Shown: one piece after another, positions 44,204 through 57,814 of the stretch
Numbering within the stretch: position 1 is the stretch's first letter
How the letters are laid out: the number at the start of each line of letters is the position of its first letter
Assembly: GCA_035512955.1 (NCBI GenBank)
Contig: DATKCZ010000013.1
Coordinates: forward strand, 305-64,304
Length of the DNA: 64,000 nt
Source: Acidimicrobiia bacterium
Lineage (GTDB): Bacteria > Actinomycetota > Acidimicrobiia > Spongiisociales > ZC4RG35
Reading direction: 5' to 3'
Notes under the pieces: model-generated
What the model was told of the DNA's origin: nothing
Database searches by the model: none
What the model saw: only the letters and a program-made list of their open reading frames with translations
Position numbers and translations under genes: made by a program

Positions 44204-45145
44204 CTACTTGCTGCGCAACTTGGGATCGAGGGCGTCGCGGAGCCCGTCGCCGATGTAGTTGACACTCATCACGGTCAGGGAGATCAGCACCCCCGGTGCG
44301 ATGACCCGCATCGGTGACAACTGGAGATAGTTGTTGCCGTCGAAGAGGAGACGGCCCCAGGTGGGGAAGCTCGCCGGGAAACCGAGCCCCAGGAAGGAGA
44401 GCGCCGACTCGGTGATGATGGCGACCGCCACCCCGAGGGCCGCGGAGACCATGACCGGGCTCAAGGTGTTGGGAAGGATGTGACGCATGATCACGTTGCG
44501 ATTGCGGGTCCCGATGCTGTTGGCGGCGAGGACGAACTCCTCCTCCTTGATCGAGAGGACGTCACCTCGAACCACACGCGCCGTCTGCATCCAACTGGTC
44601 ACACCGATGATGAAGACCACCAGCAGGAAGATCCCCAGCTCCTCACCGAAGGCCTCCTTCAGACTGTCCCTGAAGAGCATGATGACCACCAACAGCAAGG
44701 GGAGGATGGGCAACGCCAGGAACAGGTCCGTGATCCGCATCAGCGGACCGTCGAGTTTGCGGAAAAAGCCCGAGAGGATCCCGATCGCCGTGCCCAGGAA
44801 CACTCCGAAGAGCATCGCAGCGAATCCAACGGAGAGCGAGATCCGACCACCGATCAGGACACGGGCGAGGACGTCACGACCGAGATTGTCGGTACCCAGG
44901 GGGTGCTGCGCGGAAGGCGCCTGGTTGGTTATCGAGGTGTCCACGGCATAGGGGTCGACTCCGTAGATGAGAGGCCCGAAGACGGTGGCGAAGACGATGA
45001 GCCCCAGAAGAACCAGCCCGACCACGGCGCCTTTGTGCTTCTTGAACTGACGCCAGACGTCCTCACGCAGCGTGCGATGATGCTCGCCGCCGCCAGGCGC
45101 CGCTAGACCGGTTTGCTCGTCGACTCGCTCCTGTGTGGTTGCCAT
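44204..45145 (-). CDS. ABC transporter permease (DppC/OppC type)
   Basis: It has six TM segments and the EAA-like loop region of binding-protein-dependent transport permeases. Confidence 0.88.
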   Translation of the reverse strand: MATTQERVDEQTGLAAPGGGEHHRTLREDVWRQFKKHKGAVVGLVLLGLIVFATVFGPLIYGVDPYAVDTSITNQAPSAQHPLGTDNLGRDVLARVLIGGRISLSVGFAAMLFGVFLGTAIGILSGFFRKLDGPLMRITDLFLALPILPLLLVVIMLFRDSLKEAFGEELGIFLLVVFIIGVTSWMQTARVVRGDVLSIKEEEFVLAANSIGTRNRNVIMRHILPNTLSPVMVSAALGVAVAIITESALSFLGLGFPASFPTWGRLLFDGNNYLQLSPMRVIAPGVLISLTVMSVNYIGDGLRDALDPKLRSK

Positions 45146-45161
45146 GTCTGTTCCTATTCAG

Positions 45162-46181
45162 TCAGTCGTAGCGGATCCGCGGGTCCATCACGCCATAGGT
45201 GACGTCGGCTATCAGGTTGAAGACCACGATGAGCACCGCGAACATGAAGGTAAGGGTCTGCACCATCGGCACATCGGATTGACCGATGGAAATGATCAGG
45301 AGTTGGCCCAACCCGTTGATCCTGAAGATCTGCTCGGTGATGATGGCGCCGGCGAAGATGCCCGGGACCTGGAGTGCGATAAGGGTGATAACCGGGATCA
45401 TGCTGTTCCTCATTACGTGTGTCATCACCACGCGGTTCTCCCTGAGACCTTTGGAGCGTGCGGTGCGGACGTAGTCCTTGTTCAGGTTGTCGAGCATCGA
45501 CGATCGGGTGAACCGGCTCAAAGCGGCGGCGTTGAACAGGGAGAGCACTGTGATCGGCATGATCATCTGCTCGACTTGGAACCAGATGCTGTCCCAACTC
45601 GTCCAGTCGACCACATGGGTCGTGGTGTAGAAGGAGGGGAACCATCCCAGCCACACGCTGAAGATGACGATGGCGAGGAGACCGGTGAAGAAGACCGGCA
45701 CCGAGTAGCCCACCATCGTCACGAAGGTGCCGACGTTGTCGAACGCCGAGTACTGCTTGTAGGCGGAGATGACGCCGACGGGGATGGCGATGACGATCCC
45801 GAGGACGAAGGCGATGCCCAGGATCCACAGCGTCTGGGGCAGCCGCTCCATGATGATGTCGATGGCTGGTGCCCGGGAGGACCAGGAGATGATGCGGGCC
45901 CGGTTCTCGCAGTCGCCGATGCAAGTGCCGAAGATCGAGTCGATGGCGTTGAGCGGCTCGTTGATGAACATGAGTTGCATCCACCTGAGCCACTTGACGA
46001 GGAAGGGGTCGGTGAAACCCATTGCCTCCCTGATCCGCTCACGGACCTCGGCCGGGAGCGTAAGAGGTAGCTGGGAGCTCGGGTCGCCCGGGGCCAGATC
46101 GAGAATGGCGAAGATGATGAAGCTGATCACGATCAGCGTGGGGATCGCGAACAGCGTCCGTCTGACGATGTACCTGCCCAT
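45162..46181 (-). CDS. ABC transporter permease (DppB/OppB type)
   Basis: The N-terminus is MGRYIVRRTLFAIPTLIVISFIIF and the C-terminus is DPRIRYD. Confidence 0.9.
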   Translation of the reverse strand: MGRYIVRRTLFAIPTLIVISFIIFAILDLAPGDPSSQLPLTLPAEVRERIREAMGFTDPFLVKWLRWMQLMFINEPLNAIDSIFGTCIGDCENRARIISWSSRAPAIDIIMERLPQTLWILGIAFVLGIVIAIPVGVISAYKQYSAFDNVGTFVTMVGYSVPVFFTGLLAIVIFSVWLGWFPSFYTTTHVVDWTSWDSIWFQVEQMIMPITVLSLFNAAALSRFTRSSMLDNLNKDYVRTARSKGLRENRVVMTHVMRNSMIPVITLIALQVPGIFAGAIITEQIFRINGLGQLLIISIGQSDVPMVQTLTFMFAVLIVVFNLIADVTYGVMDPRIRYD

Positions 46182-46205
46182 CTCTACCTGCCCGAGGTTC
46201 GTGGT

Positions 46206-46243
46206 AAGAGAGCCTTTCAGGTTTGACCCTGAAAGGCTCTCTT
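46206..46243. other. Perfect 16-bp intercistronic stem-loop between the SBP and permease genes
   Basis: The arms are AAGAGAGCCTTTCAGG and CCTGAAAGGCTCTCTT around a tttgac loop. No U-tract follows on the mRNA strand. Confidence 0.7.
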
Positions 46244-46270
46244 GTCAGTAGGTCGAAGTCTAGAGCAGCC

Positions 46271-48076
46271 CTATCCGCTGCGGGTCCAGTCTTCGATGTT
46301 CCATAACTCGGAATCCCATCCGTTGACGTCCACGTAACCATCGAGCGTGCTCGCGAAAGCGGAAACGCTTCCACGATTGACCAACGGGATGACCGCGTAC
46401 TGCACCATCAGGTCGTTCAGCTGAATGATCAGCTCGTTGCGCGCCGGATCCGTGAGAGACGTCTCGGACAGCTGCTGCCAAACCGCATCGAACTCCTCAC
46501 TGGCGAGGCGCTGGAGGTTGCCTCCACCCCATGAGTTCGTCGACTCGGGGATCTCGCTGCTCAAGTTCGACTGGAAGTAGCTCTGAGCGTCTGTGCCCAC
46601 CGCGGAGTTGGTGTACAGCTGGATGTCCGTGAAGAACTTCCAGATCGACGCATCGCTGGCCGCGGTGCCGTCGAAGAACAGACCCGCGTCCTCGTTTCTC
46701 ATCGAGGTCTCGACGCCGATCTGCTCCCAGTACACCGCGATCAGATCCTGTTCGGACTGACGCACCGCGTTGGTGGAGGTGACCACCTCGAACGAGAGCG
46801 GGAGCCCGTCGGGCGTCTCACGCACACCGTCACCGTCGGTGTCCAAGTACCCGTTCTCATCGAGCAGCGCGTTGGCACCCTCGATGTCATGGGTGAGACA
46901 CCAGTCGTTGTTGGTCGACAACGCGTCACCTGGCACGGGCCAGATGTTGCAGGTCGGCTCACCTGCGGGGCCGTACGCCACGGCCACCATCTCCTCGCGG
47001 TTTATCGCCATCGACAATGCGTCGTGGAGAACCTGGTTCTCGAAGAAGTACGGGTTCGGGTTGCTGCCGTCGGCATAGTCAGACGGTGGGTCACCGTCCG
47101 GGTCGGTTTGGTTCAGGTTGAGGTGCTCGACCGAGGTGTTGAACCCGACTGCAATAATCCCGTTTCCGGCTGCCTCCATGGGCCCGAGGATCTCAGGGGC
47201 GACCTGGAGGTTCCAGGCATAGTCGGCTTCGCCGATCTCGAGGACGGAACGTGCCGTTGCCTCGGCGTCGCCGCCACCCTTGATCTCGGCGGTCCCGAAG
47301 AAGGGCTTGCCCTCAGGGATCTTCCGATAGTTCGGGTTCATCTCGTACAGCACTGTGTCTTCGGCCCGCAGCTCGGTGACCACGAAGGGCCCCGTGCCCA
47401 CTGGCTGGAAGTTCTGCTCGGTGCAGGCCGTTGCGGCCTCACCGACACAGTCGGCGAACTGCGCCCGCTGGAGCACCGGCTCGGTCGCTCCGACAAAGGG
47501 GACGTACGGCCACGGTGTCGGACCGTCGAAGGTGATCTGGACGGTCGAGTCGTCGACGGCTTCGACACTGGTGACGCTTTCGAACGCCGGCGAGATGCAG
47601 CCGGTCAACTCGTCAATGCAGTACTCCCAGGTGAAGACGAAGTCGTCTGCGGTCAGCGGTGTGCCATCCGACCAGAGCACGCCGTCCTGGATGGTCCAGG
47701 TGATCGAGGTCAGGTCTTCGGCGATTCCGCCGTTCTCGACAGTCGGGACCTCCGTTGCCAGCGCAGTCACGATCTCACCGTCCGTGTTGTACTCGGCGAG
47801 ACCCTCCAGGACCATAGATCCGGCTTGGATGTCCTTGGTGCCCGTTGACAGATAGGGATTTGCCTGAGATACGGCCTGCCACTGCAGGAGCAACAGGTTT
47901 CCACCCTCACCGGCGCCACCGCCGGTTGGCGGCTCCGTCGGTTCGGTGGAGTCAACAGATGTGGTGGTCGCGCCACCGTCGCCGGTAGTGGTGGTCCCAT
48001 CAACGTCGCCGCCGCCGCATGCCGCGACCACCATGGCAAACACGGCGAGCAACGACAGCAATCTTGTTTTCTTCAT
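46271..48076 (-). CDS. ABC transporter substrate-binding lipoprotein, family 5 (peptide/nickel type)
   Basis: It has the lipobox VVAACGGG, a Thr/Gly linker, and SBP_bac_5-like length and pattern. Confidence 0.88.
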   Translation of the reverse strand: MKKTRLLSLLAVFAMVVAACGGGDVDGTTTTGDGGATTTSVDSTEPTEPPTGGGAGEGGNLLLLQWQAVSQANPYLSTGTKDIQAGSMVLEGLAEYNTDGEIVTALATEVPTVENGGIAEDLTSITWTIQDGVLWSDGTPLTADDFVFTWEYCIDELTGCISPAFESVTSVEAVDDSTVQITFDGPTPWPYVPFVGATEPVLQRAQFADCVGEAATACTEQNFQPVGTGPFVVTELRAEDTVLYEMNPNYRKIPEGKPFFGTAEIKGGGDAEATARSVLEIGEADYAWNLQVAPEILGPMEAAGNGIIAVGFNTSVEHLNLNQTDPDGDPPSDYADGSNPNPYFFENQVLHDALSMAINREEMVAVAYGPAGEPTCNIWPVPGDALSTNNDWCLTHDIEGANALLDENGYLDTDGDGVRETPDGLPLSFEVVTSTNAVRQSEQDLIAVYWEQIGVETSMRNEDAGLFFDGTAASDASIWKFFTDIQLYTNSAVGTDAQSYFQSNLSSEIPESTNSWGGGNLQRLASEEFDAVWQQLSETSLTDPARNELIIQLNDLMVQYAVIPLVNRGSVSAFASTLDGYVDVNGWDSELWNIEDWTRSG

Positions 48077-48356
48077 GTCTTATTTCCTCCATGTGCCGGA
48101 ACGATCGTCCGGCATCAGAGGGCAACGCTACCAGCGTCTCGGATGCTGGGGCGAGGAAACGCCGGCCGATTCGCTGCTTTCCGATAACTGTCCGATAACC
48201 GACAGTTGCCATTCGAGACCGCGGAACTACAAACCTCAGGTATTGGACCTCATGTAAGAAACCGACAGCCCCGAGAACGCGAGCGGCCGTTTTCTCGAGA
48301 TCGTGAGTTCCGTATCGGGCTACCTGCGGTTATCGGACCAACCTCGGGCAGGAGCG

Positions 48357-49406
48357 CTAGATCGGTGTGACGGTGAGCGTGCTGTCCAACTCGGCGAAGT
48401 GACAGGCCACCCAGCGGCCCGGCTCGAGCTCGCGCCACTCGGGCACCTCGGTCACACAGCGCTCTTTTGCCACAGGGCATCGGGTGTTGAAAGGACACCC
48501 CGGGGGTGGGTTGGCGGGGCTGGGGATGTCCCCCTCGAGGATGACCCGCTCCCTGGTCGCCTCGACCACGGGGTCGGGGACCGGGACCGCCGAGAGCAGC
48601 GCCTGGGTGTATGGATGCTTGGGGTCGTTGTAGAGATGGTCGACGTCGGCCAGCTCCATGATCTTGCCCAGATACATGACCGCCACTCGATCGGCGATAT
48701 GGCGGACCATGGAGAGGTCGTGGCTGATGAACAGATAGGTCAGGCCGAGGACCTCCTGGAGATCCTCGAGGAGATTGACCACCTGGGCCTGGATCGAGAC
48801 GTCCAGGGCGGCTATCGGCTCGTCGGCCACGATGAAGTCCGGGTTGAGGGCGATGGCTCTGGCGATGCCGATGCGCTGTCGTTGCCCGCCCGAGAACTCG
48901 TGGGGATAGCGGTTGGCGTGCTTCGGCTCCAGACCGACCAGGCTCAACAGCTCTTCGATTCGCTTCTTGCGGTCTTCCCCCTTGGCCTTGTTGTGCTCGG
49001 TCAATGGCTCACCGATGATCGAGGCAACGGTCATCCGGGGGTTGAGCGACGCATGGGGGTTTTGGAAGATCATCTGCATGCGGGGTCGAAGAGAGCGCAG
49101 CTTGTTCCCGGTGGTCACCGTCAGGTCGACGTCCTCGAACTGGACTACACCCTCGGTGGCTTTTTCGAGCTGGAGGATCACTCGCCCCGTGGTCGACTTG
49201 CCGGAGCCGGACTCACCGACGAGCCCCAGTGTCTCGCCGCGTCGAACGTCGAAGGTGATGCCGTCGACGGCGCGGACGGCCCCAACCTGACGACGGAACA
49301 CTCCCTTCATGATAGGGAAGTGCTTCTTCAGGCCTTGGATCCTGACTATCACATCGTCGGTCTGGGGGGCGGGAGCAGGTGGCGCGGTGGGAGTCTCAGT
49401 TGCCAT
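48357..49406 (-). CDS. ABC transporter ATP-binding protein (DppF/OppF type)
   Basis: It has Walker A GESGSGKST, signature FSGGQRQR, and the C-terminal oligopeptide-ATPase Cys motif (PPGCPFNTRCP). Confidence 0.9.
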   Translation of the reverse strand: MATETPTAPPAPAPQTDDVIVRIQGLKKHFPIMKGVFRRQVGAVRAVDGITFDVRRGETLGLVGESGSGKSTTGRVILQLEKATEGVVQFEDVDLTVTTGNKLRSLRPRMQMIFQNPHASLNPRMTVASIIGEPLTEHNKAKGEDRKKRIEELLSLVGLEPKHANRYPHEFSGGQRQRIGIARAIALNPDFIVADEPIAALDVSIQAQVVNLLEDLQEVLGLTYLFISHDLSMVRHIADRVAVMYLGKIMELADVDHLYNDPKHPYTQALLSAVPVPDPVVEATRERVILEGDIPSPANPPPGCPFNTRCPVAKERCVTEVPEWRELEPGRWVACHFAELDSTLTVTPI

Positions 49407-50412
49407 AGCGAGGCCGGTCGTTGTCGAGGTCCCACCAGCAGGCGGTCTTGCGGCCATTGCCGATGTCCATCAGAGGAGGGTTCTCCTCGCGGCATTTGTC
49501 GTAGACGTACGGGCACCGCGGTGCGAACGGGCAGCTCGTGGGGAATTCGTAGAGGTCGGGCGGCTGACCCTTGATGTTGACCAGGTCCAGACCCTTTTGG
49601 TCGAGTCGGGGCAGCGATCCCAACAGGCCCTCGGTGTAGGGGTGTTGGGGGTTGGCATACAGCTCGTTGACCGGGGCCTCTTCGACGATGAGCCCGGCGT
49701 ACATGACGAGTACACGTTCGGCAAGACCGGCGACGACCCCGAGGTCATGGGTGATCCAGATCACGGCGGTCCCCAGCTTCTCCCTGAGGTCGCGGACTAT
49801 CTGGATTATCTGGGCCTGAATTGTGACGTCGAGGGCGGTTGTCGGCTCATCGGCGATCAGTATCTCGGGATCACAGGCGAGCGACATCGCGATCATCACC
49901 CGCTGTCGCATGCCTCCCGACAGCTCGTGGGGGTAGTTTTTCAGTCTCGCTGCCGCGTCGGGGATGCCGACGAGGTCCAACAACTCCTTGGCCCGGAGTC
50001 GCAACTGCTTCTCCGTCAAGTCGGTGTGGAGCCCGAGGGCCTCGGTTATCTGATATCCGATGGTGAGCACGGGGTTGAGTGAGGTCATCGGGTCCTGAAA
50101 GATGAACCCGATCTTGCCCCCTCTGATCGAGCGAAGCTCGTCGAGGTCGACTTTGAGGAGGTCTTGGTCACCGAACATGGCCTGACCGGACATGATCTCG
50201 CCGGGTGGCATCGGGATCAGGCGGAGCAGGGACATCATGGTCACGGTCTTGCCCGAGCCGGACTCACCCACCACCCCGAGAAACTCGCCGCGTTTGAGAT
50301 GGAAGCTGACACCGTTGACCGCATGAACGGTCCCGTCCTGTGTGACGAATCGGGTCTTGAGGTCGTCGACCTCGAGGACCGTCTGGATCTGAGTCTGTGT
50401 CACGCTGCCCAA
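49396..50412 (-). CDS. ABC transporter ATP-binding protein (DppD/OppD type)
   Basis: It has Walker A GESGSGKT, signature LSGGMRQR, and the C-terminal CPFAPRCP. Confidence 0.9.
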
Positions 50413-50475: not shown

Positions 50476-51627
50476 CTACCCGCTATCGCCGATACTCTCC
50501 CAAACCTCTCTCTCGGCCATGTCGATGATCGTGTAGGCCATCGCCAGCGCACCGTCCCTAATCGCCTCGTCGCCGCTCTCGGTGACGGTGGCGGCGGCGA
50601 AGTCCTTTTGATGATTGACCGCGCCGTTGGTCTCGATGGCCAGCATCGGATGGATCGAAGGGACCACCTGGCTGAGGTTGCCCATGTCAGAGGACCCCCC
50701 GGATGCCCCGACCTCGGCCTCGAGGGGGAGGGGACGGCCCAGTGCGGTCGAGTTCTGCTGGAACAGCTCGGTCATGATCGCGCTGTTGACCATGTTGAGA
50801 TAAGGATGTCCGAGCGGGTTCAGCTCGAGACGGCAACCCGTGGCCCGGGCCGCGGCCTCGAAACAGGCGTGGACCTTGGGGATCAGCTCCTCGAGCCGCT
50901 CGGAGCCCGCGGAGCGAATCCCCCAGGTCGACCTGGTGTAGGCGGGGATGATGTTGTTGGCGTCCCCGCCATGGTTGATGATGCAGTGGACCCGGTCGCT
51001 GGGAAGCAGCTGCTGTCGCAGCGTGGCCACGTTCATGTATGCCTGGACGAAGGCGTCTAGGGCATTGATCCCCACCTGGGGGGCGAACGCGGCGTGGGAC
51101 TCCTTTCCGTGGTACTCGACGGTGAAGCTGCTCCGTGCCTGGAAGCTGGGGTCGAGCAGGTCCCGTGGGCTGGGGTGGATCATCATCGCTGCAGCGGCGT
51201 CTTGGAGAGCCCCGGCGTCGATGAGGTCGACCTTGCCCCCACCCCCCTCCTCGGCAGGGGTGCCGAGCACGGTGACCCGGATGCCCAGCTCATCGGTCAG
51301 GCCCGCTACCGCGACTCCCGCCCCGAGAGCCGCAGTGGCGATGATGTTGTGACCGCAGGCGTGTCCGATCTCGGGGAGAGCGTCGTACTCACAGCAGATG
51401 ACGACTCGTGGCCCCGATGAGCCGGCGGTGGCTTCGAACGCGGTTTTCAACCCGTGTGTCGGATGTTCAACCTCGAACCCGTTGTCCCTGAGGAAGGCGG
51501 CGAGCTTGGCGGAGGACTCGTACTCCTCATACTGGATCTCGGGGTTCTCGTACATCCACCTCGAGATCCCCCGGAGCTCGGCCTCGACGGCGGTGAACCT
51601 CTCTTCGGCTGTCTGTTTGCGGCTCAT
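50476..51627 (-). CDS. M20 family amidohydrolase/metallopeptidase, copy B
   Basis: Motifs are CEYDALPEIGHACGHN and GTPAEEGGGGK. I chose the ATG at 51627. Confidence 0.85.
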   Translation of the reverse strand: MSRKQTAEERFTAVEAELRGISRWMYENPEIQYEEYESSAKLAAFLRDNGFEVEHPTHGLKTAFEATAGSSGPRVVICCEYDALPEIGHACGHNIIATAALGAGVAVAGLTDELGIRVTVLGTPAEEGGGGKVDLIDAGALQDAAAAMMIHPSPRDLLDPSFQARSSFTVEYHGKESHAAFAPQVGINALDAFVQAYMNVATLRQQLLPSDRVHCIINHGGDANNIIPAYTRSTWGIRSAGSERLEELIPKVHACFEAAARATGCRLELNPLGHPYLNMVNSAIMTELFQQNSTALGRPLPLEAEVGASGGSSDMGNLSQVVPSIHPMLAIETNGAVNHQKDFAAATVTESGDEAIRDGALAMAYTIIDMAEREVWESIGDSG

Positions 51628-51649
51628 GGGCGCACGGTAGCCAGTGGCT

Positions 51650-52789
51650 TCACAGGCTCTCCCATACGTCCTGTTCTGCCATGTCGATGATGGTGTGGGC
51701 CATGGCCAACGCACCGTCTCGCAGCGCCCGTTCCCCCGAAGGGGTGACGGTGGCGGCGGCGAACTCCGGCTGGTGATTCACCGCCTCGGTCTCGATGGCG
51801 AGGGAGGGATGGATGGAGGGGACGACATGGCTCACATTGCCCATGTCCGACGAAGCCGAGGTTTCGATTCCCGAGTCGGCGAACGTGGGCATCGACCTTC
51901 CCAGAGCGATGCAATTGGCCGCGAACAGTGCGGTCATCACCGGGTTGGAGATCAAATCGACATATGGCTCGCCCTCGTACTCGATCTCGAGCCGGCACCC
52001 CGACGACTGGGCGGCCGCCTCGAAACAGGCGAGCACCTTTTGCTTGATCGCATCGAAGCGATCGGCGGTGGCCGCCCGGACGATCCAACGTGATCTGGTG
52101 AGGTCGGGTATCACGTTCGGTGCCCCGCCCCCCTCGGTGATCACACCGTGGACACGGTCCCCCAACTCGAACTGCTGTCGCAGAGTCGAGATGTTGTTGT
52201 ATGCCCCGACGAAGGCGTCGAGGGCGTTGATACCGAGTTGTGGTGTGGCGGCCGCGTGGGCGGTCTTGCCGTGGAAGGTGGCGACGAAGCCCTGGGCCGC
52301 CAACAGCTTCGGGTCGACGAGGTCGTGTCGGCTGGGGTGGATCAGCAGCGACGCCGCGGCGTCCTCGAACGCCTCCGCCTCGATCAGATCGATCTTGCGG
52401 CCCCCGCCCTCTTCGGCGGGAGTCCCCAGCACAGTGACCCTGATGCCGAGCTCATCGGCGAGACCGGCCAACGAAATGCCGGCTCCCACCGACGAGGTGG
52501 CGATGATGTTGTGGCCACAGGCATGTCCCACCTGGGGGAGGGCGTCGTACTCGGCGCATATGACCACCCGGGGACCCGATGACCCGACGTTCGCCTCGAA
52601 GGCGGTGCTGAGCCCGTAGGCCGGATACGTGACCTCGAAGCCGTGCTCACCGAGGAATTTGGCGAGCCTGGCCGATGACTCGAACTCCGCATCGCCGAGC
52701 TCGGGGTTGTCGTACATCCACCTCGAGATCTCTGTCAACTCCCTCTCGACGGTGGAGAAGTCGTCGACTGCTCTCTGTTTGTGACTCAT
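51650..52789 (-). CDS. M20 family amidohydrolase/metallopeptidase, copy A
   Basis: Motifs are AEYDALPQVGHACGHN and GTPAEEGGGRK. It is colinear with copy B over the full length. Confidence 0.85.
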   Translation of the reverse strand: MSHKQRAVDDFSTVERELTEISRWMYDNPELGDAEFESSARLAKFLGEHGFEVTYPAYGLSTAFEANVGSSGPRVVICAEYDALPQVGHACGHNIIATSSVGAGISLAGLADELGIRVTVLGTPAEEGGGRKIDLIEAEAFEDAAASLLIHPSRHDLVDPKLLAAQGFVATFHGKTAHAAATPQLGINALDAFVGAYNNISTLRQQFELGDRVHGVITEGGGAPNVIPDLTRSRWIVRAATADRFDAIKQKVLACFEAAAQSSGCRLEIEYEGEPYVDLISNPVMTALFAANCIALGRSMPTFADSGIETSASSDMGNVSHVVPSIHPSLAIETEAVNHQPEFAAATVTPSGERALRDGALAMAHTIIDMAEQDVWESL

Positions 52790-52850: not shown

Positions 52851-54755
52851 TCAGTCGCCTGGCCCGGTGAGGACTGCGGACAACGTACGGAAGAGGATGC
52901 GCAAATCGAGGGTCATCGACTGATCCTCGACGTACTTCTCGTCGAGGTCTGTGCGCTCCTCGATCGAGAGCGTGTCACGCCCTTCGATCTGGGCCAGCCC
53001 GGTGATCCCCGGTTTGACTGCGAAGCGCCGGTTATCGACCCCGACCACGTCGGCTTCCGACTCGACGAGGGGGCGGGGGCCGACCAACGACATCGAGCCC
53101 TCGAGAACGTTCCACAGGTTGGGCAGCTCATCTATCGACCAACGTCTCAAGAAGTGGCCGACACCGGTGATACGTTCGTCGTCTTCGATACGGATCGAGG
53201 CGACGGTGTCTTCATGACGGGCCGCCTGGAGACGGGCGAGGTGCTCGGCGAACACGGATTCGTCGGCCTCCGGGACCATGCTTCTGATCTTCAACAGCCC
53301 GAACGGGCGCAGGTTCCTCCCCATCCTCGTCTGCCTGAAGAAGATCGGCCCCTTGCTGTCGACCCGAACTGCTAACCCGGCGGCCAAGACGATCGGGGCG
53401 GTCAACACCAGGAGCACCAGCGACACCCCGATGTCGACCGTTCTCTTGGCGAGTTGGTAGGCGGCCCGGCTGCCCCGGGCCGTCCTCGCAGTCTCCCCGA
53501 CGGCAACCGCCCCGGTGACCAGGGCGATCAAGGCGACGACCTCGCCGCTGGCGAACCCCAGGGCCACCCTCCCCACGGCGTCGATCCCATTCACCAGAGT
53601 GGACGCGCTCGCTGCCGCGGCCAGACCGGCCAGCCATGCCACACCGAGACGGACCGGCTGGTTGCGAGCCACGAGGATCTGTCCCACGAAGAGCCCCGCG
53701 CCGGCGAGCACCACCCCCACCGCCACGGCCGAGGTGACGAACCTGGTCGGGGCGAAGTCCGACCCGAATGCCACCTCTACCACCCACGGGCCAAGAAACC
53801 AGCCCAGAGCGGCGGCCAGGAGGGAGAGCCCGGCTGCGGCCCAAGCCATGCCCCGAGCCCACGATCTCAACTCATGTCGCTCGCCCCTGGCAGCCATCTC
53901 GGTGAAGGGCGGGAGGACCCGGGCAAGGAGGTTGTACCCGAAGGTCAACGGCGCGCGGCCCAGCGTGAATGCGGCGAAGGCGATGCTGATCTCGACAGGC
54001 GAGCCGCCGAGGAACCCCACGATGAGGGGCCCACCCAGCAACAGAGCTTGAGATGCGGCGGAGGCGAGGACCAGCCCGCTGAGAAGCCCCCGGTCAGACA
54101 TCATCTCGCGCTCGGCGGCGTCGAGCTGCCTGCGTCCCAATTCGACCTTTTGGAACGGATGCCACAGCATCACGATCGCCGGGCCGATGATCAGACCGAG
54201 TGCAAAACCCGACGCCGAAGGTCGAACGATGGTGACGCCGATCGCCACTACGAGCCTCAGCACCGAGGCGGCTCCCGAGGAAAGCCCGTATGCGCGGAAC
54301 CGCCGCCATCCTGCGAGATGCCCCCGGGCCGCGGCGAAGAAGAAGTGTCCCGCCACGGTGAGGGTCGTGAATACGATGAAACGCCGGTCGCCGTTGAGGT
54401 AGGAGTCGACGCCGAGCCAGGCGAAGAGGGTGGAACCCAGGATGCTCAGACCTCCCAGCCAGTAGGCGCGTAGGGGGAGACCCGTGTCGGAGCGATCCAC
54501 GGTGAGACGGCGCACCACCAGTTGCTCGATGGGCATGAGGAGCACTATGAAGGTGAGGAAGTGCACCGTGAGCAACACCGACACCGGGGCGAAGGCCTCG
54601 GCCCCAAGAGTCCGCCCACCGATCAGTTGGTAGGCGTACGCGGCGACACCGGCCACGGCACTGCCCCCCACGATGTACGCCGTGCCATCGCTGCGCAGGT
54701 AGGCGTATCGGGTCTCAGGCGTGGAGGGTGCGCGCTCGCTTTCGGAGTCCATCAA
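52851..54755 (-). CDS. Fusion protein: 12-TM polysaccharide-flippase-like (Wzx/MOP-like) domain plus C-terminal monotopic phosphoglycosyl transferase (bacterial sugar transferase)
   Basis: The C-terminal roughly 200 aa carry KRTVDIGVSLVLLVLTAPI, SKGPIFFRQTRMG, LLKIRSM, DELPNLWNVLEGSMSLVGPRPL and KPGITGLAQ. The N-terminal roughly 430 aa have about 12 hydrophobic segments. The flippase assignment is inference only. Confidence 0.8.
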   Translation of the reverse strand: MMDSESERAPSTPETRYAYLRSDGTAYIVGGSAVAGVAAYAYQLIGGRTLGAEAFAPVSVLLTVHFLTFIVLLMPIEQLVVRRLTVDRSDTGLPLRAYWLGGLSILGSTLFAWLGVDSYLNGDRRFIVFTTLTVAGHFFFAAARGHLAGWRRFRAYGLSSGAASVLRLVVAIGVTIVRPSASGFALGLIIGPAIVMLWHPFQKVELGRRQLDAAEREMMSDRGLLSGLVLASAASQALLLGGPLIVGFLGGSPVEISIAFAAFTLGRAPLTFGYNLLARVLPPFTEMAARGERHELRSWARGMAWAAAGLSLLAAALGWFLGPWVVEVAFGSDFAPTRFVTSAVAVGVVLAGAGLFVGQILVARNQPVRLGVAWLAGLAAAASASTLVNGIDAVGRVALGFASGEVVALIALVTGAVAVGETARTARGSRAAYQLAKRTVDIGVSLVLLVLTAPIVLAAGLAVRVDSKGPIFFRQTRMGRNLRPFGLLKIRSMVPEADESVFAEHLARLQAARHEDTVASIRIEDDERITGVGHFLRRWSIDELPNLWNVLEGSMSLVGPRPLVESEADVVGVDNRRFAVKPGITGLAQIEGRDTLSIEERTDLDEKYVEDQSMTLDLRILFRTLSAVLTGPGD

Positions 54756-54867
54756 ACCGGTGTTAGCTCAATCGGGTCTCGGCATTGGGGATTTTGGTAC
54801 TCGCGTTGAGAAATTGCCGCCCCCGAAGCTAGGGAAACACCGTATGGCCCCATAAGATCGGAGTGGC

Positions 54868-56328
54868 TTGGCATCTACTGCAGACACCCCCGGGACGAGC
54901 TCGAAGCGTGCATCGCTTGCCGCGCTGGCATCTGCGGTTGTCCCCGGTTGGGGCCAGATATATGCCGGCAGGCCGGAGCGGGGCAAACGCCTGCTGATCG
55001 TCGACGGGGCGATCGTCGCCCTCAGCCTGGGCGCCATTCTCTGGCTCCGGCTCGATGTCCTCAAGCTGTGGGTGTCGACCACTGCGCTCGCCTCGATGAT
55101 GGTGGTCAACCTGGTGTTGCTGGGTTACCGGTGGTTGGTGGCCACCGACGCCTACCAGTCGGCAGGCGAGCCCGCGCCACGCTGGCAGACCAATCTCGTC
55201 ATCGGCGTGGTCGCTTTCGTGCTGGTAATCCCCCATCTCATCTTCGGCTATCTGACGGTGACCCAATACAGCCTCATCAGCAGTGTGTTCGGGGGACCCG
55301 AGCCGGTGGCGTTGCCCCCCGAGGCGACGACCACCACCCTGAGCGGCGACCCCGTGTTGGCTCCGGTGACCACCACGCCGGCGGTGGTTACCGCGACGAC
55401 GGTGGGGCCCGCCCTGTGGGACGGCCTGGAGCGTCTCAACATCGCCCTGCTCGGCGCCGATGCCGGAGCGGGGCGACAGGGGCTGCGCACCGACACCGCG
55501 ATCGTCGTCAGTCTGGACCCACAAACCGGCGATGCGGTGATGTTCTCCGTTCCCCGGGACCTCTCCAATGCGCCCCTACCCGACGGGATGGGGCGATGGG
55601 ACTGTGACTGCTTCCCCGATTTGTTCACCCATCTCTATGACGCGGGCGAGACCAATCCCGCGGTCTTCGAGGGCCCCGACACCCCGGGCATCAATGCCGT
55701 CAAGGGTGCCCTGGGTGAGATGTTCGGCATTCCGATCCACCACTACGCGCTGGTGACTCTCGACGGTTTCGTCGACATCGTCGACGCTCTGGGTGGGGTG
55801 ACCATCGAGGTCCCGGTGACGATCTTCGACAACGAGTACCCCCACGAAGACGGGACCATCGAGAGCATGACTATCGAGGCCGGGACCAGACATCTGAATG
55901 GTCACGAGGCCCTGGCCTACGCGCGTATCCGACGCCAGTCCAATGACTTCGCCCGGATGCACCGTCAGCGCTGTGTGCTCGAAGCGGTGGTCGAGCAGTC
56001 GAGCCCCACCGAGATCCTCTTCAGGTTTGGCGCCATTGCCGAGGCCCTGAAGCGGAGCCTGGTCACCGACATTCCCGAAGAGAGACTGGCCGACTTCATC
56101 GACCTTCTGCCCAAACTGTCCACAGAGCGCATCGTCAGTCTCCGGATCACCCGGGAGCGGTACAAGAGCGGCGAGGGCGACGGCCGTGTCTACTACGACA
56201 TCGAAAGGATCAGGGACGACGCCCGGGCGCTCATGGAGAATCCGGGCTCGGCCCTGGCCGATCTCGGTTTGGACAGCCTCGACGGGACATGTGGGGAGGG
56301 AGACGAGGACCCGTCAACGGGGCTTTAA
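54868..56328 (+). CDS. LCP (LytR-CpsA-Psr) family glycopolymer ligase with N-terminal multi-TM domain
   Basis: LCP blocks are LNIALLGADAG..RTDT, FSVPRDL, HHYALVTLDGFVDIVDALGGV and LAYARIRRQSNDFARMHRQ. The N-terminus has a PGWGQIYAGR motif and TM segments. The start (TTG 54868) is uncertain. Confidence 0.85.
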   Translation: MASTADTPGTSSKRASLAALASAVVPGWGQIYAGRPERGKRLLIVDGAIVALSLGAILWLRLDVLKLWVSTTALASMMVVNLVLLGYRWLVATDAYQSAGEPAPRWQTNLVIGVVAFVLVIPHLIFGYLTVTQYSLISSVFGGPEPVALPPEATTTTLSGDPVLAPVTTTPAVVTATTVGPALWDGLERLNIALLGADAGAGRQGLRTDTAIVVSLDPQTGDAVMFSVPRDLSNAPLPDGMGRWDCDCFPDLFTHLYDAGETNPAVFEGPDTPGINAVKGALGEMFGIPIHHYALVTLDGFVDIVDALGGVTIEVPVTIFDNEYPHEDGTIESMTIEAGTRHLNGHEALAYARIRRQSNDFARMHRQRCVLEAVVEQSSPTEILFRFGAIAEALKRSLVTDIPEERLADFIDLLPKLSTERIVSLRITRERYKSGEGDGRVYYDIERIRDDARALMENPGSALADLGLDSLDGTCGEGDEDPSTGL

Positions 56329-56375: not shown

Positions 56376-57814
56376 ATGTCACGATCCGCCCCCATCGACG
56401 CCGCCTCGAAGAGACCGAGTGGTCTGGTAGCGATCGCCTCCTCGATCGCTCCCGGTTGGGGCCACATCCTCATCGGGAGGGTGGGAGTCGGCCGTGCCCT
56501 CTTGTTCGTCGACGGGCTCTCGGTGGTGGCGGTGCTGGTATCGGTCTTCTGGTTCCAGGTCGAGCTGGTCGAGGCGTGGGTTACCCCCACGGCTCTGGTG
56601 GCAATCCTGGGTCTGAACCTCGGAGCGCTGATCTACCGGGCCTCGGTCACGGTCGACTCCTTCCTCACCTCGGGCTCTCGTCGATGGTATGACTGGGTCG
56701 GAGCGATGCTGGCAGGCATCCTCCTGGTCGCCCCCCACCTCCTAATCGCCGGTCTGACCCTCATCCAGTACGACCTCCTCGACACCGTCTTCGCCCCCGC
56801 CGGGGTCGAGGCCGCGGCGGCAACGTCGACGAGCGCGGGGCGCCCGCGCCGACGACCACCGCCGTAGAGGCCACCACTTCCACGTGGCCAACGACGACGA
56901 CCACCACGGAACCGAAGATCTGGGATGGGCACCAGAGACTCAACATCATGCTGCTCGGCAGCGACGCCGGCGTGGGTCGCATCGGGACCCGAACCGACAC
57001 CATCATCTTGGTGAGTATCGAGCCGGAGCCCGGGAAGGTGGCGATGTTCTCGGTACCGAGGAATCTCTCCGCCGCCCCGCTCCCCGAGGGGATGGGTCGG
57101 TGGGACTGTGACTGCTTGCCCGACATCATCACCCACCTCTGGGCGAACGGTGAGTGGTATCCCGATGCCTTCCCTGGCCCCCAGGAGCCGCCCATCAACG
57201 CGTTGAAAGGGGCACTCGGCCTCATCTTCGACGTCGACATCCATTACTACGCCAAGGTCGACCTCAGGGGCTTCGTGGGCGTGGTCGATGCGCTCGGCGG
57301 GGTCTCGATCGACGTCCCGGAGACCATCGTCGAACCCATCTACCCCCACGAGGACGGGGGCACCGAGCACGTCGTCATCGAGGAGGGGGCCCAGGTGCTC
57401 GATGGGCACCGCGCCCTGGCGTACGCGCGCATCCGCCGTAACTCGGGGGACTTCGCCCGGATGCATCGTCAGCGATGTGTCCTGGGCGCCCTGGCCAACC
57501 AGATCGGGCCGTTCGACGTGCTCAGCGGCTATCACCAGTTGGCGACCGCGATCGAGGAAAACGTGGTGACCGACATCCCGATCGACCGTCTCGGCGACTT
57601 CGTCGAGTGGCTGCCCAAGGTGAGCACCTCGAGGGTGGCTTCGCTGCGGATCACTCGTTACAACTACGGGGCGGGAGGTCACCCCGGCCAGCAGTTCTAC
57701 GATCTGGAACGGCTGAGGGCTGACGCCCACGCCCTCATGGCCGACCCCGAGACCGCCCTCGACACTCTCGACGGGTTTGGCCTCGATGCGACCTGTGAGG
57801 AGTCCTTCGAATAG
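56376..57814 (+). pseudogene. Second LCP family gene, split by a frameshift into a membrane N-terminal ORF (56376-56867) and a catalytic ORF (frame open upstream, first ATG at 56948, ends 57814)
   Basis: It is colinear with 54868..56328. The reading frame changes from frame 0 to frame 2 between about 56815 and 56850. One extra G in the G4 run at 56837-56840 would restore ...AAAATSTSAG-APAPTTTAVE... Confidence 0.7.

Follow-up and report, generated by a model that had tools for sequence, protein, structure and literature searches.

The subject of this work is an open reading frame (ORF) on the minus strand of a 64,000-bp stretch of DNA, hereafter the window, from an uncultured Acidimicrobiia bacterium (assembly GCA_035512955.1, contig DATKCZ010000013.1, positions 305 to 64,304 of the forward strand). 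Its product joins in one chain a predicted N-terminal membrane domain of the MOP superfamily, which has 12 transmembrane (TM) helices and resembles Wzx-type flippases, and a C-terminal domain of the monotopic phosphoglycosyl transferase (PGT) type. We consider it fairly likely that this one protein both initiates and flips a polyprenyl-diphosphate-linked sugar (polyprenyl-PP-sugar), which a LytR-CpsA-Psr (LCP) family enzyme would then attach to the cell wall. The elements of the fusion are as follows.

52851..54755, minus strand: the complete fusion ORF coding for 634 amino acids (aa), with a TTG start, ATG as codon 2 and the stop codon at 52851-52853; the orthologues are ~630-640 aa long.
53505..54683, minus strand: the MOP-fold (Wzx/MurJ-like) membrane domain, residues ~25-417, with 12 TM helices, assigned from AlphaFold2, Foldseek, conservation and the bias of Lys plus Arg (K+R).
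53466..53504, minus strand: a short, basic, cytoplasmic linker, residues 418-430, with a low predicted local distance difference test score (pLDDT), which joins TM helix 12 to the membrane helix of the PGT.
52869..53447, minus strand: the monotopic PGT catalytic domain (PF02397), residues 437-629, recognised with Pfam, NCBIfam, an orthologue profile and Foldseek, and accompanied by a membrane-associated helix, residues 429-466, with the invariant P454.
53127..53132, minus strand: the codons of D542-E543, the Asp-Glu dyad within SIDELPNLWNVL, invariant in 40 orthologues.

Translation of the minus strand gives 634 codons with zero internal stops, and the protein most likely starts at MDSESE..., i.e. 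at the ATG right after the TTG. The plus-strand reading of 52851-54755 was rejected as its frame is full of stops. A first-pass annotation, made from the letters of the window alone, had placed the ORF at exactly these coordinates, leaving its strand unstated, and had described a single chain with a membrane part of ~430 residues and 12 helices followed by a PGT. Both claims hold, with 12 TM helices predicted and PF02397 covering residues 437-629, and all the motifs quoted in that annotation are present, namely DIGVSLVLLVLTAPI (441-455), FFRQTRMG (472-479), DELPNLWNVL (542-551), VGPRPL (558-563) and KPGITGLAQ (581-589). The full-length AlphaFold2 model, built from 40 orthologues, has a pLDDT of 84.4 and a predicted TM-score (pTM) of 0.84, and the arrangement of the two domains in the single-chain PGT-flippase is predicted to be fixed.

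Residues 437-629 match the Pfam model Bac_transf (PF02397) with an E-value of 4.4e-59 and a score of 199.4 bits, where the cut-off is 27, and the alignment covers profile positions 1-178 of 179. A profile of the 40 orthologues compared with solved structures retrieved WbaP and PglC chains through the C-terminal part alone (E-values from 1e-48 to 1e-40), and the Foldseek search with the AlphaFold2 model found PglC with an E-value of 1e-9 and a TMt of 0.79-0.81. The residues invariant among the 40 orthologues include D542/E543, the PRP motif (P560-R561-P562), K437/R438/D441 (KRxxD) and P454, the latter lying within the helix 429-466, which is drawn as continuous by DSSP of the predicted model, the corresponding helix of PglC-like enzymes being re-entrant and interrupted at a conserved Pro. 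The Asp-Glu dyad, the catalytic pair of monotopic PGTs established by studies of PglC, is assigned to D542-E543. Judging from these matches, the C-terminal domain is clearly a monotopic PGT core with intact catalytic motifs. NCBIfam models for large PGTs of the WbaP, WcaJ and EPS types (TIGR03022, TIGR03023 and TIGR03025) aligned with residues ~431-633 alone, scoring 200-243 bits against cut-offs of 295-411; since these models cover the last ~200 residues and do so below their cut-offs, the earlier remark that the protein lacks the four-TM N-terminus of WbaP-type enzymes is borne out.

The same annotation had likened the N-terminal domain to Wzx/MOP-type exporters, and here too the searches agree. 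Twelve long helices were found in residues 1-430 by DSSP of both AlphaFold2 models and by hydropathy. The K+R count is 27 in the putative cytoplasmic segments versus 6 in the outside loops, and an N-in/C-in topology is predicted; with such a topology the PGT domain would therefore be cytoplasmic, where the nucleotide-sugar donor is, as PGT chemistry requires. A domain-only AlphaFold2 model, built from 100 diverse homologues, reached a pLDDT of 92.6 and a pTM of 0.90. When it was compared with the PDB by Foldseek, the top match was an inward-facing structure of WzxE, the lipid III flippase (E-value 3e-6, TM-scores 0.65/0.68 over 421 columns), followed by MurJ (0.67) and then by MATE proteins (0.55-0.65), all three with a probability of 1.00, and none of the 38 matches at E ≤ 1e-3 had a non-MOP fold. 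With the full-length model, every match outside the PGT chains was likewise a MOP-superfamily transporter. Sequence identity of the domain to WzxE and MurJ is 16-17%. Below its threshold, the Wzx-family model PF01943 (Polysacc_synt) was seen in 8 of the 40 orthologues (best E-value 3e-5) and in 9 of 100 stand-alone homologues (best 9e-7); Pfam found nothing at E ≤ 1 in ten stand-alone homologues, and NCBIfam had no match in two. O-antigen ligases or polymerases (Wzy_C) and membrane acyltransferases, which the first-pass annotation had named as other possible identities of this domain, appeared neither when 140 members of the family were scanned with Pfam (E ≤ 0.1-10) nor among the Foldseek matches. 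On the basis of the predicted models, the domain is best described as a diverged relative of the Wzx proteins within the MOP superfamily, lying outside the current family models. A further match, to FieF (100-sequence profile of the domain versus solved structures, E-value 2e-5), covers one 80-residue hydrophobic stretch and was rejected as a compositional TM match that the fold search does not support.

A different cargo for the MOP domain has to be considered at this point, as it might return polyprenyl phosphate to the inner leaflet for use by the PGT, or export a solute in the manner of MATE proteins with no relation to glycans. The substrate is unreadable from sequence, and structures of the MATE drug/cation antiporters score almost like those of WzxE and MurJ in the fold search, which we count among the points against flippase function. 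Against another cargo stand the recurrent neighbours of the family, i.e. PGT, LCP and sugar-nucleotide enzymes, and the fact that the sole sequence-level signal, and the sole recurrent Pfam signal among the relatives of the domain, is that of PF01943, while MatE was never seen. To our knowledge, the recyclers of carrier lipid belong to the DedA and DUF368 families and not to MOP. We thus hold this explanation to be highly improbable.

The fused architecture is conserved widely and well beyond chance. A word-indexed search with residues 1-430 returned 367 clusters at E ≤ 1e-3; among the 120 homologues listed, nearly all are 615-670 aa long and carry PF02397, and 119 of these 120 close homologues have both domains in the same order according to our own hidden Markov models (HMMs). 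An exhaustive search of representative sequences found 806 relatives of the N-terminal domain at E ≤ 1e-3, and the best 150 of them include nine fused proteins (six of them full-length, with identity down to 36%) and 138 free-standing ones of ~400-450 aa. With 138 of the 150 being free-standing, the N-terminal domain is therefore an autonomous protein family, a subset of which has acquired the PGT domain. In a FastTree phylogeny of 128 N-terminal domains, all 17 fused ones fall into one clade with 96% local support, with six stand-alone members interspersed, and the stand-alone sequences linked to LCP genes belong to this clade as well. Three changes between the fused and unfused states are needed by the tree, one of which is forced by strongly supported branches. 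The labels given by NCBI and JGI to the fused homologues are simply those of sugar transferases.

It might be argued that the fusion is an artefact of assembly or annotation, in which a missed stop or a frameshift joins two adjacent genes, given that the source is a metagenome-assembled genome (MAG) of 85% completeness, that one of the neighbouring LCP genes (LCP2, see below) is frameshifted and that in another locus the fused gene itself is split. However, the frame is continuous and runs through a conserved 13-residue linker, the same architecture is present in the 119 of 120 close homologues listed and in six full-length representatives with 36-53% identity, the independent assemblies come from NCBI, ENA, JGI and Logan, and the whole chain is modelled by AlphaFold2 with a pTM of 0.84. 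The missed stop or frameshift that the first-pass annotation had itself considered is thus contradicted by an architecture kept down to 36% identity across many independent assemblies, and the chance of an artefact is in our opinion negligible. The split gene mentioned above is located on a 3.7-kb MAG contig (L052:588-2583) and is divided between two frames that overlap, one carrying the MOP part and the other the PGT part; an assembly indel is the probable cause, and natural fission may be another.

Conservation within the family also bears on whether the membrane domain is functional. Across 100 homologues that share 27-43% identity, R267 never varies, and R48, R82, R144, Q236, R279 and several Gly, Pro and Trp residues are conserved at a level of ≥90%. 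The invariant R267 and the conserved membrane-embedded Arg and Gln residues argue for a functional membrane domain and not for a mere anchor.

The unfused relatives point in the same direction, as the family is repeatedly found next to PGT genes. In the genome of origin, contig C41 (L036:14463-16975, minus strand) contains a gene for a large PGT of 431 aa (TIGR03025, 302 bits, above the cut-off) and, immediately after it, a paralogue of the MOP domain, which is 36% identical to the fused domain, overlaps the PGT gene in a different frame and scores 27.5 bits with PF01943 against a cut-off of 28.2. The C41 pair is convergent with a gene coding for a class A penicillin-binding protein (PBP) bearing PASTA domains, and two glycosyltransferase genes, of the GT2 and GT1 families, are located 3-5 kb upstream of it. 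The same order of PGT and then MOP is found in genome G047 of the same genus and in G017 and G160 of the same family, and in G119 the PGT and MOP genes are convergent and abut each other.

Genome G119, which belongs to the same order, also harbors the stand-alone protein most closely related to the fused domain, with 44% identity. Its gene heads an operon with a sugar-nucleotide dehydratase/epimerase of the short-chain dehydrogenase/reductase (SDR) type and then a WecA-like polytopic PGT (PF00953). An LCP gene is transcribed away from this operon (L037:4198-9223 for the two together), no glycosyltransferase (GT) gene is present, and the whole is the same three-function module with a non-homologous PGT. 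In the actinobacterial loci L043 and L044, the MOP gene is accompanied by the same kind of SDR and by a GT4-family PGT nearby, and in L046, also actinobacterial, a GT4-family PGT is near the MOP gene and the SDR match is weak and 5.8 kb off. For P0128, a stand-alone member from a metagenome, there is an LCP gene upstream whose stop codon it overlaps. The family is thus repeatedly tied to a PGT of either superfamily and to LCP, as would be expected of a flippase acting between them.

These relatives help to judge the proposal that the MOP domain is dead in transport and serves as an anchor, an oligomerisation scaffold or a regulatory module in place of the four-TM bundle of WbaP, with another protein doing the flipping. 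Such a role would agree with the divergence of the domain, which is too great for the Pfam and NCBIfam models, and with the non-catalytic membrane N-termini that large PGTs carry (PMC10942596, PMC11257628). Yet the family consists mostly of free-standing proteins of ~420 aa, meaning that the domain has its own function; the membrane-embedded Arg and Gln residues are conserved family-wide; besides MurJ and the C41 paralogue, the genome has no other Wzx-like gene; and the pairing of the stand-alone relatives with non-homologous PGTs is more in keeping with a partner in the pathway than with a scaffold specific to PGTs. We consequently find a scaffold role quite improbable.

A lipid II flippase (MurJ, PF03023) was also considered because the C41 pair adjoins the class A PBP gene. 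It was rejected: there is zero match to PF03023, the domain has 12 TM helices and not 14, the number characteristic of MurJ, and a canonical MurJ is encoded elsewhere in the genome.

The genes divergent from the fusion gene in the window are the following.

54756..54867, no strand: an intergenic region of 112 bp between the divergent ORFs of the fusion and LCP1, presumably holding both promoters.
54868..56328, plus strand: LCP1, an LCP-type glycopolymer phosphotransferase of 486 aa with an N-terminal membrane region (PF03816, E-value 4e-32; TIGR00350, 97.8 bits against a cut-off of 62.3).
56376..57814, plus strand: LCP2, a tandem paralogue of LCP1 split over two frames, with its N-terminal part at 56376-56867 and its catalytic part at 56693-57814.

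The membrane N-terminus of LCP2 (56376-56867) is 39% identical to residues 11-141 of LCP1 and the catalytic part (56693-57814, in the other frame) is 58% identical to residues 181-480, with the frame switch at ~56795-56912 in a linker rich in Thr, Ala and Pro. In the orthologous loci L129 and L132 both LCPs are intact, with lengths of 490 and 497 aa, and the split LCP2 is either a real pseudogene or an indel of the MAG assembly.

A divergent partner of the LCP1 type recurs in the orthologous loci, and altogether the fusion has an LCP gene beside it at 10 of the 12 independent loci inspected together with their flanks, namely the window, the metagenomic loci L001, L002/L049, L004, L129, L130, L131 and L132 (36-75% identity), L040 from genome G133, and L051. 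The genes on the non-LCP side vary, being M20/Opp, Fur, histidine kinase or PLDc_N/ZnuA genes. As a rough control, our own LCP HMM detected an LCP at only 1 of 75 unrelated PGT loci. A GT gene adjoins the fusion in none of the 12 fused loci. LCP neighbours in the absence of GT neighbours suggest a very compact make-flip-attach pathway for a short wall glycan.

The glycan inventory of the genome, whose assembly comprises 2.1 Mb in 45 contigs, includes two monotopic PGTs (Bac_transf matches) and two MOP-family members, each paired with one of the PGTs, and zero other PF01943-like genes. There is a single canonical MurJ (contig C14, 212.9 bits) and a single PGT of the GT4 family, which is MraY, hence no WecA/TagO. 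Seven LCP domains were counted. As far as this inventory, drawn from a genome 85% complete, goes, the substrates of the seven LCPs must be initiated by the two PGTs, and the sole Wzx-like flippases available are the two MOP-family members. For a monoderm bearing seven LCP domains, the genome has unusually little glycan machinery, and no Wzx recognisable by Pfam.

From the architecture, predicted folds, PGT motifs, topology, conservation and gene neighbourhood, all read directly, we infer the catalytic and flipping activities, which glycan is handled and how long it is, and the role of LCP as its consumer. The PGT domain would form polyprenyl-PP-sugar at the inner face of the membrane, and the covalently attached MOP domain would move this molecule, bare or minimally extended, to the outer face. 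There LCP1 and LCP2 would transfer sugar-1-phosphate or a short glycan to the MurNAc-6-OH of peptidoglycan and free the lipid carrier, in line with general LCP chemistry (PMC7831098). With both domains in one chain, initiation and export would be tied together one to one, and the scarce lipid carrier would be kept from being trapped in a dead-end intermediate, similarly to MprF. Alternatively, the LCP acceptor may be a wall protein, as is reportedly the case for LcpA of Actinomyces oris.

As for the length of the glycan, the lack of GT genes in 12 of 12 loci together with LCP genes in 10 of 12 gives indirect support for a very short unit, possibly of a single sugar, and a single-sugar unit is plausible, if unproven. 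The stricter version, in which the pathway is GT-free and the fusion and LCP suffice to decorate peptidoglycan or a wall protein, is a tentative proposal that we would not expect to hold. If it did, two genes would be enough for a minimal decoration of the wall, and this would be the first case in which a Wzx-type flippase naturally carries what the initiating enzyme makes in unextended form; the L037 operon with its WecA-like PGT would then be a second, independent form of such a minimal pathway.

Another reading is an ordinary multi-sugar unit of the Wzx type, for which the polyprenyl-PP-sugar is lengthened by GTs from elsewhere in the genome before it is exported, and in whose pathway initiation and export are fused by happenstance. 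The flippase mechanism would be the same as in the reading preferred above, the differences being the length of the glycan and how self-contained the locus is. Wzx proteins normally flip completed units. The genome has seven GT matches (four to PF00535 and three to PF00534) on other contigs, and LCP enzymes normally transfer polymers (PMC7831098). On the other hand, no GT gene adjoins the 12 fused loci or is found in the L037 operon, none of the PF00535 and PF00534 matches lies on the 137-kb contig to which the window belongs, and the C41 pair has GTs within 3-5 kb, so that GT clustering does occur where a longer glycan is expected. A multi-sugar unit of this kind is in our view unlikely, though less so than the scaffold role discussed above.

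Several observations weigh against initiation and flipping by the fused protein with LCP as the consumer. Residues 1-430 have zero Pfam or NCBIfam matches at E ≤ 1, and the assignment of the domain as a flippase draws on a predicted fold and gene context, with the MATE structures scoring nearly as well. All seven GT matches lie on other contigs of an assembly that is 85% complete, and the absence of nearby GT genes is compatible with GTs encoded elsewhere. Two closely related fused loci, L050 and L053, located between ftsK and pabBC, have no LCP gene within 6 kb. The LCP HMM used for the control on unrelated PGT loci was made from paralogues of the same genome and may under-detect LCPs in distant phyla. 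Finally, G047, which belongs to the same genus and is 99% complete, lacks the fused gene and has kept just the MOP paralogue beside a PGT, so that the module of fusion and LCP is an accessory one, patchily distributed even within the genus.

The protein may be compared with several known systems. Its C-terminal 200 residues form the typical core of monotopic PGTs such as PglC and WbaP/WcaJ, with PF02397, a Pro-bearing membrane helix, the Asp-Glu dyad and the PRP motif. Bifunctional PGTs (Bi-PGTs) are likewise fused to another member of their own pathway, but their described partners are soluble, i.e. a GT, an acetyltransferase or a sugar-modifying enzyme, whereas here the partner has a 12-TM transporter fold; large PGTs (Lg-PGTs, WbaP/WcaJ) possess a four-TM bundle and a nucleotide-binding-like domain in the place of the 12-TM MOP fold (PMC11257628, PMC10942596). 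With the Wzx flippases (WzxE; PF01943/PF13440) and MurJ the fused protein shares 12 TM helices, both ends in the cytoplasm, conserved Arg residues in the membrane domain and PGT or wall-ligase neighbours, while its domain is only 16-17% identical to them, falls below the family thresholds and is covalently joined to the initiating enzyme. MprF also combines an N-terminal polytopic translocation domain with a C-terminal cytoplasmic synthase and exports its own product (PMC8131360, PMC4324311), but the folds are unrelated (the MprF flippase is not a MOP protein), as are the substrates (phospholipid versus polyprenyl-PP-sugar) and the chemistry. Loci where a PGT, a MOP flippase and an LCP are encoded by separate genes, such as the Wzx-dependent loci for capsule or wall polysaccharide that have CpsA-type LCP ligases, and the wall-glycopolymer locus of C. 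difficile, link the same three functions (PMC7831098, PMC5065235). Those loci encode several GTs and often a polymerase, whereas the fusion loci have the first two functions in one protein and no accompanying GT or polymerase gene.

No description of a fusion of a MOP/Wzx protein with a PGT was found in the full-text literature searched, outside which lay a 2021 network survey of monotopic PGTs that may list it. This similarity-network survey, published in PNAS, is said to have catalogued fusions of monotopic PGTs. As the N-terminal domain escapes Pfam, a domain-based catalogue probably would not have recognised it. Within the literature searched, we rate the fusion as an undescribed architecture, with a MOP subfamily lacking its own model, and not as a new kind of system.

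Both domains come from well-studied superfamilies, and for the hand-over from PGT to flippase and the minimal recognition by Wzx-type proteins a natural single-chain PGT-flippase (pTM 0.84) could be a ready-made object in cryo-electron microscopy and in assays of coupled synthesis and flipping. A sizeable actinomycetotal MOP subfamily escapes the current Pfam and NCBIfam models, and domain-based surveys of PGTs would class the fused proteins among PGTs whose N-terminus is unassigned. For the Acidimicrobiia, which are abundant and mostly uncultured in aquatic and soil habitats, the fusion is a pointer to how wall glycans may be made in small genomes with few GTs and no WecA.

Directly downstream of the fusion gene, at 50476-52789 on the minus strand, there are two tandem paralogues coding for M20-family peptidases (412 and 379 aa as the longest ORFs, with a 65-nt overlap), and beyond them, at 44204-50412, an Opp-type peptide ABC transporter. 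The M20-M20-Opp block also follows the fusion in L129, L130 and L131, possibly reflecting a connection with the turnover of peptides or muropeptides, or else just synteny that has been conserved. A gene coding for a small membrane protein with DUF5698/DUF2179 recurs in several orthologous loci by the LCP genes of the module, at L129:3884-4411, at L131:1076-1600 and at the edge of L132.

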